Part shown: positions 18,922 through 35,026 of the stretch, piece by piece
Layout of the letters: each line of letters opens with the position of its first letter
Numbering within the stretch: position 1 is the first letter of the stretch
Sequence record: MN850645.1
Strand: one strand, 5' to 3'
From: Escherichia phage outra
DNA length: 64,000 nt
Program-made: the position numbers and the translations under genes
Notes under the pieces: model-generated
Seen by the model: the letters and a program-made list of their open reading frames with translations, nothing else
Databases searched by the model: none
Told to the model about the DNA's origin: nothing

Positions 18922-19136
18922 TATTTTGAAAATTTTTATTTTTATAAAAAGGGGTGTGGGTTTCATGTACGGAAATCCACCCTCTGAATAATATATCCAG
19001 AGTAAATATTATTCTGTACTCTGTTAATAAAGTATTTAATTTGTTTGTTTGACTATGGTATCTGATCTTTAAAAGGCATACTATCTCTTAACTACTACTT
19101 ATAACAGAACAGTAAAATCATTTTTATAAAAAGGAC

Positions 19137-19340
19137 AAAATTATTTAAAGTTTTTACAGATTTTTGGGTACAAATTTTGAAAATGAAAAGTTCAAGTTTG
19201 GTCAAAATTATTTAAAGTTTTTGTACGTATTTCTATCCAGATTTTGAAAATGAAAACTTCAATTTTTTAAAAATTCCCCAGTTTATTTAAAGTTTTTTTG
19301 CCTTTTTCCGTAGAAAAATCAAAAATGAAAAGTTCAATTT
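19137..19340. repeat. three tandem imperfect direct repeats of about 67 bp
   Basis: each unit contains TTATTTAAAGTTTTT ... GAAAATGAAAAGTTCAA. Confidence 0.7.
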
Positions 19341-19363
19341 CGTGTTTTTATGGGTGTGCGTAT

Positions 19364-19472
19364 GATAATCATTTTCATTTGTAAATGAGAATCATTATCA
19401 TTTAAGTATGTAAGTGATAATCATTCTCAGTAAGAGAATGAGAATCATTAGCAAATGAGAATTTTCTCATTT
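19364..19472. promoter_or_regulatory. cluster of Fur-box-like palindromes (AATGAGAATCATTATCA etc.)
   Basis: 19384-19400 matches 14/15 of the E. coli Fur consensus core ATGATAATCATTATC; further GATAATCATTCTC-type palindromes at 19416-19472. Confidence 0.5.
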
Positions 19473-19734
19473 AGAGAATAACGCGCAGGGGCGGTGTTTG
19501 TCTCGCGCTCCCGTGTCCCCTCGCCATACAATAAGAATAGCATAACCAACAACAAAAGCAAGCGATTATTTTTATCTTTACATTTCTTTACAAATTTATT
19601 TTAGACGAGCTACCGGCGATCAACCTTCCAACCAGTAGTGCCCTGGTATGTTAGCCCCGCCTTTACGCCGTGGGGGTGGCGCTTCCTCTTCTGTATGTAA
19701 AACAGTATAAGCCCGATCCCTGGGCTTGTCAAGA

Positions 19735-20001
19735 TTATTTTTTGTTTTCTTGCCAGGATAGGACACCTAGCCAAAAATACATGTCGCCCCGCGCCCCTGG
19801 CGGGATCTTGCTTTCCCCGCCGCCACTGCAAGCCCATAGATAACCATTTGCGAACGTATCAAAATGATCTATTTCTTCCACCTTATGATCGCCCAGGTTG
19901 AGAACGGTTTCAACCTTTAAGCCCGTTGCGCTTGCTACCTGGTGCACCGTGCCGCCTTGCCAGCCTAATGAGTGCATGAGGTGTAAAGTAGTATTTGTCA
20001 T
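19735..20001 (-). CDS. hypothetical protein (88 aa), GC-rich, divergent from island
   Basis: ATG 20001 with AAGGG SD; possible minus-strand promoter TTGCTA-18-TATTAT at 20049-20078. Confidence 0.45.
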   Translation of the reverse strand: MTNTTLHLMHSLGWQGGTVHQVASATGLKVETVLNLGDHKVEEIDHFDTFANGYLWACSGGGESKIPPGARGDMYFWLGVLSWQENKK

Positions 20002-29865: not shown

Positions 29866-30249
29866 ATGAGCAATATCATCAACCTGGCAGCGACTGTAAA
29901 CGGTAAAGATTTTAACGGCGCTGTAGATCATGATCCTATGTGGTGCTTATCAGTGTTTAAAGGTGACTTGGTTGAAGTTAGAACAACCGAAGGTTATAGC
30001 GACGATTATAAATGCGAGATTCATTTACACAACTGGTACACGGGTAAAACTTATGCGCTGAATCATGCGTTTATCGGCAAGGTTGAATATAGGGAAATGA
30101 TCGACGAAGAAACGGGGCAAGATTTTAGCGATTATGTTTATATTCGTTCCGAGACATTAGCCGAACGTTTGATCGAGAAAATGAAAGCAAAAAATAAAAT
30201 TAATTTAGCTCATTGGATTGATATAACAAACGATCCTGCTTATCAGTAA
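29866..30249 (+). CDS. hypothetical protein (127 aa)
   Basis: GAGGAA SD. Confidence 0.55.
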   Translation: MSNIINLAATVNGKDFNGAVDHDPMWCLSVFKGDLVEVRTTEGYSDDYKCEIHLHNWYTGKTYALNHAFIGKVEYREMIDEETGQDFSDYVYIRSETLAERLIEKMKAKNKINLAHWIDITNDPAYQ

Positions 30250-30263
30250 ATAACATTTCAAAC

Positions 30264-30292
30264 AAGGGCGCTTATTGCGCCCTTTCTTTTTA
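30264..30292 (+). terminator. rho-independent terminator (end of island)
   Basis: AGGGCGC-TTATT-GCGCCCT stem-loop followed by TTCTTTTT. Confidence 0.7.
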
Positions 30293-30496
30293 CCTAAATA
30301 AAGATGATAGCTTTTACCTATCAAAAACGTTCACCGAAAAAAGTGAATAGATCGCGGTATCGAGCTAATCAGGGAGCAGATGAACAACCATACCATGAAG
30401 ATCATAAGGCGCTTACAACGGCTTTTAGACCGCTTATTTTTAATTTCTTCATGCAACTATCTGGCAAAAACAGCCTTTTTCTTGTCTTTCCTCTTA

Positions 30497-30570
30497 AATG
30501 ATAATCATTCTTATTTATAGCTGATTATTTATGCAATAAACTGCATAATGCAATAATGATAATCATTCTT
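30497..30570. promoter_or_regulatory. two Fur-box-like sites (AAATGATAATCATTCTTA; AATAATGATAATCATTCTT)
   Basis: GATAATCATT core shared with Fur consensus. Confidence 0.45.
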
Positions 30571-31424
30571 AACTTATGACCATCTAACCTATAAAATAAT
30601 AAGCTATCTAACTAAATTAAAACTAATTATCTCACCTTTATTTATAACTTACTGTTACTATCTCATTGATAACCTTATATTAAACAACAATAACTAATAT
30701 AAATCATTACTAAGCTAAATATAATCTATCTAACCTTTAAAACTATAACTATAATCTATCGAATTGTTGCACAAAGTAACTATTAAATTGTTAGTAACAT
30801 TGCTAAATAATTAATATCCTATCTATTTATGATCTAATCTTTACCTTCCTATTTATTACCTAAATAACCATTTCATATAGTAATTATTTCATACAATAAC
30901 TATAACAAGAAACATAATTCGCAAGCGTATCATTAGCAGCCTATGCCGGACACATAGGCGGCTAATAATAACGCAACTACACACCCCACATAATAACCAT
31001 CACCGATAGTTATTATTTGTGCTTATGTAGCTTGCAACAATTGCAAGCGCAACAATATACTAAGGTATATTGTATCCCTTACATTGTTGCGGTGCGTTAT
31101 TATTAGCTAATGTTTAGAACATTGGCTATAATATAAGCTGCATATAATAAGCTATTCAATAATAAACATCGTGAATAATGACATTGATGATCATAATGCG
31201 CCACCCTCCAGGGGGCGCTATGTGAACACAAAGAAATCTTTCTTATCAAGAAAATATTATCACTATTGCGCAAAATTATTTACATCTGAATAGATGATTT
31301 TTCATACTATTATTGTTATTTGTTGAGCATAGTTATAGCCTATTTGTTGAGCCTACTTTCTTAAAAGCGCAATAAATCAGAATTATCTTGATTTTTAGTG
31401 CGTTTTATAGTATAGAAAATATGC

Positions 31425-31443
31425 AAATGATAATCATTATCAG
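31425..31443. promoter_or_regulatory. near-consensus Fur box (AATGATAATCATTATC)
   Basis: 16 contiguous bases identical to positions 4-19 of E. coli Fur consensus GATAATGATAATCATTATC. Confidence 0.55.
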
Positions 31444-31607
31444 CTATCTTCCACGGGTAGCACTATTTCACGCCAGATCATTTCATTTGGCAAGGTGTAT
31501 ATAGATGTTTAGACTTGCCAAGTTATTGATTTACTTAGAATTTATCTATTTTGTTGTGAGTAGTACCTTTCTTGCTTAGAAAATAATCAAAAGTCTTATA
31601 AGTCATT

Positions 31608-31640
31608 GAATGATAATACAAATGATAATTATTCTCATTG
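31608..31640. promoter_or_regulatory. Fur-box-like tandem site (TGAATGATAATACAAATGATAATTATTCTCATTG)
   Basis: repeated GATAAT hexamers and palindromic half-sites. Confidence 0.4.
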
Positions 31641-31998
31641 ATATTTGAGGGGGACGGTCGGCAGAAATCGGGGGGTGCTGAAAATCGCGTTAAGCACCTC
31701 TCGCAAGCGAGCAGTATTTTGCGGCAAGTTATTGATATTATTGGCTTTACGCTTATGAAAAGGGGGTGTGTCGAAATAAAGCGGGTATACCGGAAAATTT
31801 TTGTGGCATAGATATTTATTTGTCTATATTATGTACAAAGGGGTGTGTTAAAAATATTAGGTATATATAGAATAATTGATAGGGAAATCCTATACTAATC
31901 CCTCCATTAATGATGTTTCTATGTTACTGTTCTTGTAATAGATGAAAAGACGCTGTATGATGTGTGGCATGAAACGTAAACTTATAAAGGAGTCTGAT

Positions 31999-32376
31999 AT
32001 GTGTGTTCCTCTTAGCAGTCCACTGCTGTTAGAATTTTATAAAGCATGGATGCAAGATCATTCCTCAATGCATCGTGAGAATGTTGGTTTGTGTATTTGC
32101 CTTATGGATTATCTGGCAACCACTATGTCAAAGAAAAAACCTACGCGAGAAGATATAGAACATTTCAAGATGGTTCGTAGTAAAACGCTGGAAGAGATGA
32201 AATTGCAATTCACGTGTGCTGGGCTATCCTCCTTCCTGCCCTTTAATGATGATCTTCTGTGTTATGAAGATGAAGGTAAGAAACATTCTTGCCATACTAA
32301 CCCAGAGAGATTGCAGTGGGTGAAAGATCGTATTGCCGATTCGTGTTTGGTGTTAGGGGGTGACAATGAAAAGTAA
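31999..32376 (+). CDS. paralogue-family protein A1 (Cys/His-rich, 125 aa)
   Basis: AAGGAG SD before ATG 31999; shares S..LL.FY..W, GLC.CL.DY, QFTCAGL..LPFN, CHTN..RLQWV..RI.D with three downstream paralogues. Confidence 0.6.
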   Translation: MCVPLSSPLLLEFYKAWMQDHSSMHRENVGLCICLMDYLATTMSKKKPTREDIEHFKMVRSKTLEEMKLQFTCAGLSSFLPFNDDLLCYEDEGKKHSCHTNPERLQWVKDRIADSCLVLGGDNEK

Positions 32377-32734
32377 TATTCCGTTGAGTAGTGCAGCTTT
32401 AATACGATTCTATAAAGCATGGATTGCCAACCATCCGGCAATGAATCGCACAACGAGTGGCTTGTGTGGTTGTCTGGTAGATTATGTAGATGATTTTGTT
32501 GGTGAGGTAACTAGAGAAGAAGATAAAAGATGGCGTGATCGTTTGTTGGATAGTTTGAAATACGAAATGAGGAAACAATTTACATGTGCAGGACTGGACT
32601 ACAATCTTCCGTTCAATGCAGATTGCATGGATTACCTTTCAGAATGTATAGACTTGGCGTGTCATACCAACACGTTACGTCTTCAATGGGTGAAAAACAG
32701 AATCGAAGATGCAAATAATGCTTGCATTGAATAG
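32360..32734 (+). CDS. paralogue-family protein A2 (124 aa)
   Basis: same conserved blocks as A1. Confidence 0.6.
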   Translation: MTMKSNIPLSSAALIRFYKAWIANHPAMNRTTSGLCGCLVDYVDDFVGEVTREEDKRWRDRLLDSLKYEMRKQFTCAGLDYNLPFNADCMDYLSECIDLACHTNTLRLQWVKNRIEDANNACIE

Positions 32735-34657: not shown

Positions 34658-35026
34658 ATGCAAGAGAATACTAAAGTGTGTAGCATGAAAAGCAGCCCCT
34701 ATTTGCTACAATTTTATGCGTGGTGGTTAGAACAAGAAGATACAAACTTTAGCAAAAAGCATTATGGTCTTTGCACGTGTCTTGTAGACTTCTTATACAA
34801 TATTGCTTGGATAAAAGATGTTGAGAATGTAGCAAACCTCCAATCCTCTGTACGAGAGGAAATGAAGGAACAATTTAAGAAAGCGGGTTTGAACCATTTA
34901 CATCCGTTTAATACGGATTTCTCGCACTACTTTACGGAAACAGAGTTAGGCATTGCACACCTTAATAAAGAACGTGTACAATGGGTGATTGATCGTATTC
35001 GTGATATGGAGGAATACAATGGTTAA
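34658..35026 (+). CDS. paralogue-family protein A3 (122 aa)
   Basis: YLLQFYAWW, GLCTCLVDF, HPFN, RVQWVIDRIRD blocks. Confidence 0.6.
   Translation: MQENTKVCSMKSSPYLLQFYAWWLEQEDTNFSKKHYGLCTCLVDFLYNIAWIKDVENVANLQSSVREEMKEQFKKAGLNHLHPFNTDFSHYFTETELGIAHLNKERVQWVIDRIRDMEEYNG

Follow-up and report, generated by a model that had tools for sequence, protein, structure and literature searches.

The window analysed here (64,000 nucleotides of Escherichia phage outra, sequence record MN850645.1) comes from a Justusliebigvirus (phi92-like) coliphage and contains, from position 30250 to position 31998, a gene-free gap of ~1.7 kb in a region that is 94-96% identical to Justusliebigvirus genomes. The gap is flanked by homologues of phi92 gp248 and gp001/002, and the GC content is 0.31-0.33 over positions 30001-32000 compared to ~0.38 in the flanks. 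On the left, a rightward operon whose last gene is T4 30.8-like (29866-30249) is closed by an intrinsic terminator on the plus strand (30264-30284; AAGGGCGC-TTATT-GCGCCCTT followed by a T-run), which was detected by a terminator scan, is annotated in phages PATM and phAPEC8, and is kept as a hairpin in all clades. On the right, the next gene starts at the ATG at 31999, preceded by the ribosome-binding site AAGGAG (31987-31992), rather than at the ATG at 31942. The initial annotation described an AT-rich non-coding region, which is borne out over 30250-31998, where no conserved ORF is present; an ORF-free gap of ~1.5 kb is found at the equivalent position in all clades. A search for tRNA and tmRNA found none. 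Comparison of the whole window with Rfam gave no match at gathering thresholds; over the region, nothing relevant was found at E<=5, and the folded element described below had no family match at either setting. When the flanking T4 30.8 homologue was used as a query, ~1,000 T4-like records, and not Vequintavirinae, were returned, and the search of IMG/VR with the flanking protein led to five loci, the more distant of which end before their non-coding gap.

The phi92 annotation places copies of a direct terminal repeat (DTR) at 1-343 (DTR-L) and 148270-148612 (DTR-R). This repeat aligns to positions 31350-31692 of the window with 96.8% identity over 343 bp, and its sequence is present in the window in one copy only. 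Exact repeats at both record ends are also found for phi1_175008 (343 bp, copies 100% identical) and WPEC4 (328 bp), two other genera being represented, and the end of the VEcB record is at the position equivalent to 31349. A 342-bp DTR was determined for BME3 by PhageTerm (PMC12210895), and Stephanstirmvirinae genomes were described to "terminate with direct terminal repeats" (PMC12695924). The repeat annotated in BME3 is shifted by 73 bp relative to that of phi92. We infer by homology that 31350-31692 is a collapsed single copy of a 343-bp DTR and that the physical ends of the virion DNA of this phage lie at 31350 and 31692. The DTR itself is already known: in sequence, flanking genes and borders the repeat is like the T7-style short exact DTRs of phi92 and other Stephanstirmvirinae, which are 328-343 bp long across genera. 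With the DTR at this position, the region therefore consists of a right-end spacer, the DTR, and a left-end leader.

Both DTR borders carry, in at least five clades, a motif of the GTTR^AGCACCT type (in the form GTTR^AGCACCTyCTC, where the caret marks the border), and three independent GenBank records, those of phi92, phi1_175008 and WPEC4, end at CGCGTT(A). In the window, the right border, AAATCGCGTT(A)^AGCACCTCTC (31682-31702, plus strand), which was placed from the border alignment and the record ends, is a putative terminase cut motif, and the same GTTR^AGCACCTyCTC motif is the left-border marker in other clades. The left-border copy is degenerate in this genus (AGCCTACTTTC). Repeat detection revealed a tandem, TATTTGTTGAGC(A/C)TA x2, on the plus strand at 31317-31358, which looks like duplicated cut-site context because its second copy crosses the left DTR border. 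As a repeated cut signal, AAATCGCGKTA is not significant within the window alone, yet both copies are conserved. Compared to the described phi92 DTRs, the core is the same, while the border motif and the repeat content (Fur-like arrays and promoter-like modules) are additions of the present work; neither is described in the records and papers on these DTRs that were compared.

The spacer opens with block A (30285-30580), which was delimited by BLAST blocks and a multi-clade alignment and is ~69% identical to Phapecoctavirus; together with the folded element, it is the only part of the spacer that can be aligned with Phapecoctavirus. Conserved features of block A are two inverted repeats (GATAG..CTATC and TTCAC..GTGAA) and a hairpin, TTATGCA-N6-TGCATAA, which lies at 30529-30548 between two Fur-like boxes; the block also contains the motif AGATCGCGGTATCGAGCTAATCA (30349-30371). 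It is followed by an AT-rich tract (30580-30920) that is poor in G on the plus strand (G ~5%, GC skew ~-0.56); the tract sequence is genus-specific and cannot be aligned outside the genus, while the G depletion is seen in all clades, including 25 of the 25 element-bearing loci for which the left flank is available. The ATCTATCTAAC-like repeats reported in this tract by the initial annotation were its weakest claim: three copies of ATCTAAC and three of CTATCTA do exist, but the local P is only ~0.01 and the repeats are genus-specific. Inside the DTR, promoter-like module 1 (TTGATT-N12-TATAGT; 31388-31411, plus strand) is conserved across clades with a non-canonical spacing. The DTR segment 31468-31558, which has the inverted repeats GCACTATT and AGTAGTAC at its flanks, contains TTGGCA-17-TAGACT (31487-31515), whose first hexamer is TTGACA in phi92; the orientation of the segment is reversed in phage pEC-M2929-1AR.1. 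According to the multi-clade alignment, a block on the plus strand at 31606-31645, composed of TAAGTYATTGAAT, a Fur-like hexamer array and TGATATTTG, is universally conserved and includes module 2 (TTGAAT-N12-GATAAT). The leader (31693-31998, plus strand), which was defined by alignment and conserved motifs and precedes the first left-arm gene, contains conserved GGGGGTGT motifs at 31760-31770 and 31837-31847, the palindrome GGTATACC, and module 3 (TTGATA-N12-ACTAAT; 31876-31899). The two reported copies of AAAGGGGTGTG are found here, one exact at 31837 and one with a single mismatch at 31760. A third AAAGGGGTGTG copy lies outside the gap, at 18948. The reported GGGGTGTG motifs are likewise present in the gap. 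The search for repeats recovered the palindromes and inverted repeats, but Tandem Repeats Finder gives only two weak arrays. The number of sigma-70-like sites in the region (15) does not exceed that expected from shuffles (15.5), and TTGATW-N12-nATAAT was rejected as a genome-wide phage promoter (16 matches compared to 9.7 expected).

The large palindromes noticed around 30940-31100 are real (15-nt perfect arms at 30961-30975 and 31093-31107, and an 18-nt hairpin at 30928-30970) and fall in a conserved five-helix element of ~180 nt on the minus strand (30930-31110), which was defined from folds, 26 homologues and covariation. In this element, a 15-bp closing stem surrounds a variable arm together with three hairpins, with a GC-rich hairpin alongside. 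The fold z-scores are -5.2 for plus-strand RNA, -8.2 for minus-strand RNA and -6.3 for DNA. In the set of 26 distinct homologues (four pattern matches, L025, L028, L034 and L035, were dropped as false positives), 13 of the 45 pairs have compensatory changes on both sides, and 99.3% of cells are paired compared to 26-53% when the structure is slid, with none of 500 shuffles being as good. The consensus structure of the minus strand contains 63 G:U cells and 1 A:C cell, while the structure derived from the plus strand contains 28 A:C cells, which are wobble pairs on the minus strand, and 2 G:U cells; the minus strand folds better by ~17 kcal/mol in all 26 sequences. The single strand of minus polarity appears to be the form under selection. 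Part of the wobble asymmetry could come from strand-biased mutation (G to A on the plus strand) and not from selection, and the asymmetry fits RNA or minus-strand single-stranded DNA equally and cannot separate the two. A candidate promoter found by the promoter scan, TTGAAT-18-TATATT (31130-31159, minus strand), is directed leftward into the element; across clades, no promoter was found at a fixed distance from it. The only terminator-like hairpin downstream of the element in the leftward direction is at 30284-30264. The end of the element is overlapped by a palindrome, TAGCTAATGTT-TAG-AACATTGGCTA (31104-31128), which is one of several GCTAAT/ATTAGC-type repeats on its right flank. The folded element appears to be undescribed, and the functions proposed for it here are putative.

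It is probable, in our opinion, that a phi92-like, DTR-packaging myophage has its genome-end (concatemer-junction) control region in this gap. In that case, the assembly would be circularly permuted, with the two terminal repeats collapsed to one copy, and the concatemer would read from the last right-arm gene through the terminator, ~1.07 kb of untranslated right-end spacer, the 343-bp DTR and ~0.3 kb of leader to the first left-arm gene. Cleavage by the terminase would take place at both border motifs, and packaging would include duplication of the repeat. The 180-nt element would function in single-stranded form, with minus polarity; in the most likely case it would be the 5' domain of a transcript that proceeds leftward across the G-depleted tract up to the hairpin at 30284-30264, and this transcript may be a regulatory RNA or, alternatively, an R-loop or primer RNA for replication. 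The initial annotation proposed a replication origin or a regulatory hub and failed to recognise the physical genome end. "Regulatory hub" is a fair term for a region where Fur-like operators, promoter-like modules, a terminator and a covarying element are concentrated. A phage regulatory switch in the sense of lambda does not fit: all named relatives are isolated coliphages of the phi92/phAPEC8 group, which is described as lytic, and no regulator gene is annotated beside the gap.

An origin of replication would be compatible with a genome end. In this scenario, which we regard as possible and put forward tentatively, the folded element, the GCTAAT-type repeats and the AT-rich tract make up an origin of either the iteron type or the RNA-primed type; in the latter, a leftward transcript with a folded 5' domain would keep its G-rich, C-poor body as a persistent R-loop on the AT-rich tract. 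In RNA-primed origins (ColE1 RNA II and the R-loop origins oriF and oriG of T4) and G4-type single-strand initiation signals, a strand-specific domain of several folded hairpins is combined with an AT-rich tract for unwinding, and RNA:DNA hybrids are favoured when the transcript strand is rich in G and poor in C. The locus shares with these systems the strand-specific multi-hairpin domain and the AT-rich tract; it differs in that the element resembles none of them in sequence or in Rfam, and priming is a candidate function. A candidate unwinding tract that is 78-80% AT (~78% at 30580-30920) and strand-asymmetric in all clades adjoins the element, whose conserved structure has minus-strand polarity and which is single-copy in the window and in one whole related genome. 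The GC skew changes sign at the element in all clades, from about -0.2 to -0.6 on the left to 0 to +0.24 on the right in most of them. GCTAAT-type direct repeats recur on the right flank in all clades and are regular in the Klebsiella-phage clade; the regular array, GCTAATAATACC x4, is seen only in the KP13-26 clade. In the window there is no such regular iteron array, and the enrichment of GCTAAT is weak and not significant (5 observed compared to 2.5 expected, P = 0.10), while the ATCTAAC repeats are few and confined to the genus. DnaA boxes (TTATCCACA, at most 1 mismatch) are absent from 30285-31941, and the neighbouring genes do not include an initiator gene. The repeat-rich gap at 18922-19735 is a second origin candidate and equally good; a folded RNA downstream of the Fur array in that gap was rejected, its folding energy being no better than that of shuffles. 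Also counting against an origin, the skew analysis of rV5 revealed only switches linked to the direction of transcription (PMC3606486).

Alternatively, the hairpins and repeats, which lie 240 bp left of the DTR, may constitute a packaging element that works at the DNA level, either as a TerS-binding array similar to lambda cosB or pac, or through a hairpin intermediate that regenerates the terminal repeat. We consider this doubtful. Terminase-binding repeats of the lambda cosB/pac kind are short motifs that occur in either orientation at distances of up to a few hundred bp from the cut sites, and a hairpin intermediate has been proposed for T7 concatemer processing. The element is close to the left DTR border (31110 and 31350, respectively), the GCTAAT/ATTAGC motifs are repeated in both orientations near the cut sites as in cosB/pac, and the cut motifs at the DTR borders are conserved; in other clades, short covarying palindromes directly adjoin the left cut on its left side. 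In addition, a motif resembling the right border (AGATCGCGGTA) recurs at 30349, where it is conserved. However, binding of a protein to the duplex or extrusion of a cruciform predicts strand-symmetric arms, whereas the non-Watson-Crick pairs of the element are nearly all minus-strand wobbles. The covariation maintains hairpins of wholly different sequence between clades, which would be unusual for a protein recognition site. The strand-asymmetric wobble and the covarying hairpins set the element apart from cosB/pac and point to a single-stranded form rather than a protein site in duplex DNA.

The Fur-like boxes reported by the initial annotation have also proved real. Four sites with at most 2 mismatches from TGATAATNATTATCA are present compared to 0.10 expected under a local Markov model, and none of 500 simulations reached four. 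The boxes, all on the plus strand, match the 19-bp Fur consensus at 14-17 of 19 positions. Box 1 (TTAAATGATAATCATTCTT, with the core AATGATAATCATTCTTA; 30494-30512; 14/19) has a homologue, TGCAATGATAACCATTATC, kept at the equivalent place in Phapecoctavirus, and box 2 (AATAATGATAATCATTCTT; 30552-30570; 16/19) is 58 bp away from it. Box 3 (GCAAATGATAATCATTATC; 31423-31441; 17/19) is 74 nt from the left terminus, and box 4 (31618-31636; 14/19, and 15/19 in phi92), which is part of the universally conserved block, ends 56 nt from the right terminus. At the left terminus, all ten DTRs examined have a site with at least 14/19 matches at +72 to +100, compared to 2% of control windows, and a 14-16/19 site is located 53-60 nt from the right terminus in nine of the ten. 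Across these ten DTRs the positions of the boxes relative to the termini are conserved while their sequences drift within the NATWAT-hexamer pattern; as read from the alignment, arrays of at least three adjacent NATWAT hexamers exist in all clades but one (for example, GCGAAT GATAAT GATAAT TATTCT CATTGA in phiWec190). In a 148-kb relative, sites with at most 3 mismatches are confined to two non-coding gaps, this one and one other. Functional Fur boxes of E. coli may match the consensus at just 11-13 of 19 positions (PMC3145626). A literature search covering Fur boxes of lytic phages and transcriptomes from this subfamily found nothing relevant, and the Fur arrays in this gap appear to be undescribed. 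A scan of IMG/VR for the perfect 17-nt Fur core matched >120 unrelated contigs and was thus uninformative.

The sites are similar to E. coli Fur operators (GATAATGATAATCATTATC; NATWAT hexamer arrays) in their 14-17/19 matches and 3-5 hexamer units, and differ from them in being on a lytic phage genome, at fixed distances from DNA termini, and not demonstrably over a -35/-10 pair. Boxes 3 and 4 are on or just past TTGAWW-N12-nATAAT modules with a non-canonical spacer, and their overlap with promoters is only a candidate one, because sigma-70-like sites are not enriched, the spacers are 12 bp long and the modules are not genome-wide. In another interpretation, the boxes serve as operators for a regulator encoded by the phage, or are AT-rich promoter elements, and their resemblance to the Fur consensus is fortuitous. 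The boxes share a phage-specific flavour, TGA(T/G)AAT-N-ATT(C/A)TCA, and lack a clear overlap with canonical promoters, a homologous array is absent from E. coli genomes, and the binding of Fur is here a prediction from sequence. We nevertheless find this interpretation unlikely, given that the match to a consensus defined independently in the host is as high as 17/19, that arrays of 3-5 NATWAT hexamers are retained despite sequence drift across clades, and that the enrichment is extreme and limited to two gaps. A host origin of the Fur array was rejected, because no homologue of it was found in E. coli chromosomes. In the genome-end reading preferred here, host Fur-Fe would bind the predicted operator arrays ~55-100 bp from each terminus and in the spacer, and this binding would either couple the first phage transcripts to the iron status of the host or titrate Fur.

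That the gap conceals one or more small protein genes, and that its conservation reflects coding, is very improbable. The gap contains 13 mechanical ORFs of at least 25 codons. In the longest (65, 57 and 56 aa) and in several shorter ones, the frame is broken by a stop or a frameshift in one or more close relatives. A doubtful 46-codon ORF (30380-30520, plus strand) has GGGAG 3 nt upstream and is the sole ORF of the gap that is intact in close relatives (n=6). Its substitutions are distributed 4:2:5 over the codon positions, i.e., without a third-position bias, and its start codon is changed from ATG to ACG in Phapecoctavirus although the DNA still aligns. Automated pipelines called 7-9 tiny CDSs per record in the gap in some records, while careful annotations (PATM, alia, phi92, phAPEC8 and ZCKP1) left it without genes, and the best-conserved blocks are accounted for by pairing or by palindromic operator motifs.

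A large ORF-free stretch at a genome end of a large lytic coliphage, with dense conserved repeats and palindromes and arrays of predicted sites for a host DNA-binding protein, has a parallel in phage T5, whose left terminal repeat includes an untranslated (injection-stop-signal) region with repeats, palindromes and ordered host DnaA boxes (Davison, bioRxiv 10.1101/866236). The two regions differ in several respects. The host factor would be Fur in the phage studied here and not DnaA, and the DTR measures 0.34 kb, while that of T5 is ~10 kb long. The greater part of the gap is outside the repeat, the sequences are not homologous, and phi92-like phages are not known to inject their DNA in two steps. 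As a tentative generalisation, Fur arrays at fixed distances from both termini and in two untranslated hubs may serve iron gating of the first transcripts or Fur titration throughout the lytic Stephanstirmvirinae, and the ~180-nt single-stranded element next to the termini may prime replication or control the processing of ends.

The assignment of the gap as the genome end of phi92-type phages fixes the orientation of their genomes and flags spurious calls of tiny CDSs and inconsistent DTR annotations in public records. The phi92-type phages include therapy candidates and the BASEL phages EmilieFrey, JohannJBalmer and PaulScherrer. The folded element would provide a mutable handle on the start of replication or the regeneration of terminal repeats in this group. 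If Fur does bind, a lytic phage would be reading or manipulating the iron regulator of its host from the DNA injected first, in parallel to what was proposed for the DnaA-box array of T5, and this would be relevant to the performance of such phages under iron limitation, as in the gut, urine and serum.

Querying with the 1.7-kb gap, we found end-to-end matches in 47 Justusliebigvirus genomes (phi92-like Stephanstirmvirinae coliphages), most of them at 92-96% identity. Full-length matches at 94.5% identity were given by MG065639, MG065645, MG065656 and MG065689, which are named "Campylobacter phage" with C. jejuni as host; this label is probably wrong, or there was contamination. The left neighbour (29866-30249) encodes a homologue of phi92 gp248, a T4 30.8-like protein, and the genes on the right include homologues of phi92 gp002, gp004 and gp005; the gap thus lies at the exact point at which the phi92 record opens. 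Since the next gene has a start supported by a ribosome-binding site at ATG 31999, the gap extends from 30250 to 31998, and all fetched Phapecoctavirus and related genomes have some 1.5 kb free of ORFs at the equivalent position. The initial annotation had described the stretch as AT-rich and non-coding, and both points hold: GC content is 0.31-0.33 versus about 0.38 in the flanks, and of the mechanical ORFs the longest three (65, 57 and 56 aa) are each broken by a stop or frameshift in at least one of the five close relatives compared. A 46-codon ORF (30380-30520) is open in every close relative compared; it has no codon-position bias (substitutions 4:2:5), and in Phapecoctavirus its ATG is absent though the DNA aligns. 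Three paralogues among the first left-arm genes (31999-32376, 32360-32734 and 34658-35026) share the motif ..FYKAW..GLCxCLxDY..LQWV.. and form a small family of early proteins that has expanded.

That this gap is a genome end with a direct terminal repeat (DTR) is already known, and the assignment is solid. The phi92 record annotates a 343-bp DTR at both ends, and alignment of the window with both places it at 31350-31692, from AGCCTACTTT to AAATCGCGTTA, the window holding a single copy. In other genera, exact repeats stand at both record ends of Klebsiella phage phi1_175008 (343 bp) and WPEC4 (328 bp), and the VEcB record ends at the equivalent of 31349. Terminal direct repeats have been described for genomes of the subfamily (PMC12695924), a 342-bp DTR determined with PhageTerm is reported for BME3 (PMC12210895), and the rV5 genome map has a box marked "non-coding" (PMC3606486). 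In the BME3 record (PP239276), the annotated 342-bp "DTR-L" corresponds to window 31423-31764, 73 bp right of the phi92 DTR, an offset that we treat as an annotation discrepancy. The ends of this record carry the DTR unit about 2.8 times, a structure seemingly at odds with phi92, phi1_175008 and WPEC4. In phage pEC-M2929-1AR.1 (OP177727, 2262-2369), about 100 bp of the DTR (window equivalent about 31468-31558), with a promoter-like site TTGGCA-17-TAGACT, lies in inverted orientation; the short inverted repeats GCACTATT and AGTAGTAC flank it, and the inversion could be a natural polymorphism or an artefact of assembly.

One motif is common to both DTR borders in at least five clades: across clades, the left border reads (T)ATGTTG followed by AGCACCTTCTCTTAAA, and the right one ATCGCGTT followed by AAGCACCTCTCGCAA. 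We read GTTR^AGCACCT as the terminase cut context, which is a strong inference. Directly left of the putative left cut, other clades have a short palindrome whose sequence varies by clade while its symmetry is kept, and this genus has a tandem TATTTGTTGAGC in its place. A right-border-like motif also occurs at 30349-30371, about 100 bp past the gp248 stop codon (AGATCGCGGTA, compared with AAATCGCGTTA at 31682-31692); it is kept in all clades, and tested on the window by itself its recurrence does not reach statistical significance.

Comparison of sub-blocks with relatives by BLAST divides the gap into seven parts: a terminator (30264-30284); block A (30285-30580), which shares about 69% identity with Phapecoctavirus and has a conserved hairpin between two Fur-like boxes 58 bp apart; block B (30580-30920), whose sequence is genus-specific; a structured element (30930-31110), about 80% conserved in all clades; the genus-specific block D (31115-31349); the DTR, in which conserved islands coincide with two Fur-like arrays and the borders; and a leader, in which a AGGGGGTGT motif is conserved and a TTGATA-N12-nATAAT module is present.

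The structured element was originally noted as a large imperfect palindrome; the inverted repeats are indeed there, and folding of the region is far stronger than that of shuffled sequence. It is present once in the window and once in a whole related genome, and a set of 26 distinct homologues was assembled from phage records, IMG/VR and metagenomes. Their RNAalifold consensus has five helices with 45 pairs, 13 of which show two-sided compensatory changes; 99.3% of cells are paired, versus 26-53% when partners are slid by 1-3 columns, and none of 500 shuffles attained the observed values. The element is real. Read as the minus strand, the consensus contains 63 G:U cells versus 1 A:C, and the structure predicted for the plus strand has 28 A:C cells in 9 columns, equal to minus-strand wobble, versus 2 G:U. 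All 26 sequences fold better as the minus strand, by about 17 kcal/mol. The 350 nt to the left, unalignable between clades, are strongly G-depleted on the plus strand at every one of the 25 loci with flank (GC skew -0.22 to -0.63), and skew on the right is about -0.1 in Justusliebigvirus loci and zero or positive in other clades.

Covariation, strand asymmetry, energy and flanking composition, taken together, point to the minus strand as the one that occurs in single-stranded form, most likely as a leftward transcript, although the same pattern would result from minus-strand single-stranded DNA or from strand-biased mutation. There is a leftward promoter-like site at 31159-31130, and no leftward promoter at a fixed distance from the element is conserved across clades. 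Our preferred reading is a leftward RNA that is regulatory or serves as an R-loop or primer RNA together with the AT-rich tract. Alternatively, the element may work at the DNA level, in packaging or end regeneration. The outer 10 bp of its closing stem are invariant and are part of a GCTAAT/ATTAGC repeat family with further copies on the right flank, and so a protein-binding role is possible for this outer stem. An origin in the classical sense is another rival; iterons and DnaA boxes were tested for in the gap and not found, and the ATCTAAC-type repeats reported earlier amount to three copies (P about 0.01) in a tract unalignable outside the genus, the weakest item of that description. The earlier observations are confirmed, and the proposal of a candidate replication origin or regulatory hub is partly supported.

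The Fur-like boxes stood up well: the window has four positions with at most 3 mismatches to the 19-bp consensus (0.09 expected), and the gap four sites with at most 2 mismatches to the 15-bp core (0.10 expected even when a Markov model of the local AT-rich composition is used). Agreement of the boxes with GATAATGATAATCATTATC is 14-17 of 19 positions; functional E. coli Fur boxes can have as few as 11-13 (PMC3145626). In a complete 148-kb relative, all sites with at most 3 mismatches are confined to the gap and a second gap (equivalent of window 18922-19735). Of ten DTRs from at least five clades, all have a site of at least 14/19 at 72-100 nt from the left terminus, and nine have a second one at 53-60 nt from the right terminus; the 14/19 level is attained in only 2% of 135-nt control windows. 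The arrays drift in sequence by clade and keep NATWAT hexamer runs within an invariant frame (TAAGTYATTGAAT..TGATATTTG), which suggests selection on a binding motif. The DTR boxes lie on, or just after, TTGAWW-N12-nATAAT modules with a non-canonical spacer. Three such modules, each conserved across clades, are present in the DTR and leader (31388-31411, 31606-31629 and 31876-31899); this is not a genome-wide motif, and canonical promoter-like sites are not enriched in the region. The 12-bp spacer is closer to the distance between box and minus-10 in activator-dependent phage promoters, T4 middle promoters among them, than to the -35/-10 spacing of sigma-70. The array of the gap has no homologue in E. 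coli. An unrelated viral contig (IMGVR_UViG_3300033068_002045, 10765-11322) carries at its end the exact 17-nt Fur core AATGATAATCATTATCA eight times, about 45-90 bp apart, with the copies split three to five between the strands.

The second large ORF-free gap (18922-19735) lies between convergent genes and contains AAAGGGGTGTG (18948), a tandem run of three units, each about 62 bp long (19135-19350), at least four Fur-like boxes in an array (19358-19452) followed by the palindrome AATGAGAATTTTCTCATT, and a strong leftward promoter-like site, TTGACA-17-TATACT (19732-19704). Its array likewise has no E. coli homologue, and 19476-19752 folds no better than shuffles. The motif AAAGGGGTGTG, first listed as two copies, is exact at 31837 and has one mismatch at 31760, the copy at 18948 being a third. 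The octamer GGGGTGTG occurs in the window at 18948, 30980 (minus strand), 31763 and 31840, and only four times in the 148-kb relative OZ035770, always in the two non-coding gaps. The leader copy at 31760 aligns with the AGGGGGTGT motif retained in all clades; that at 31837 is shared with the Phapecoctavirus group only.

The literature searched on Fur boxes reports none for these phages, and Rfam has no family matching the structured element; the closest precedent for the arrays is the untranslated terminal region of phage T5 with its ordered DnaA-box array (bioRxiv 10.1101/866236). The gap is a region of a known kind, the untranslated terminal control region of a DTR phage, and two of its conserved components are apparently undescribed: the structured element and the Fur-like arrays, for which the sequence predicts Fur binding with unusually good support.
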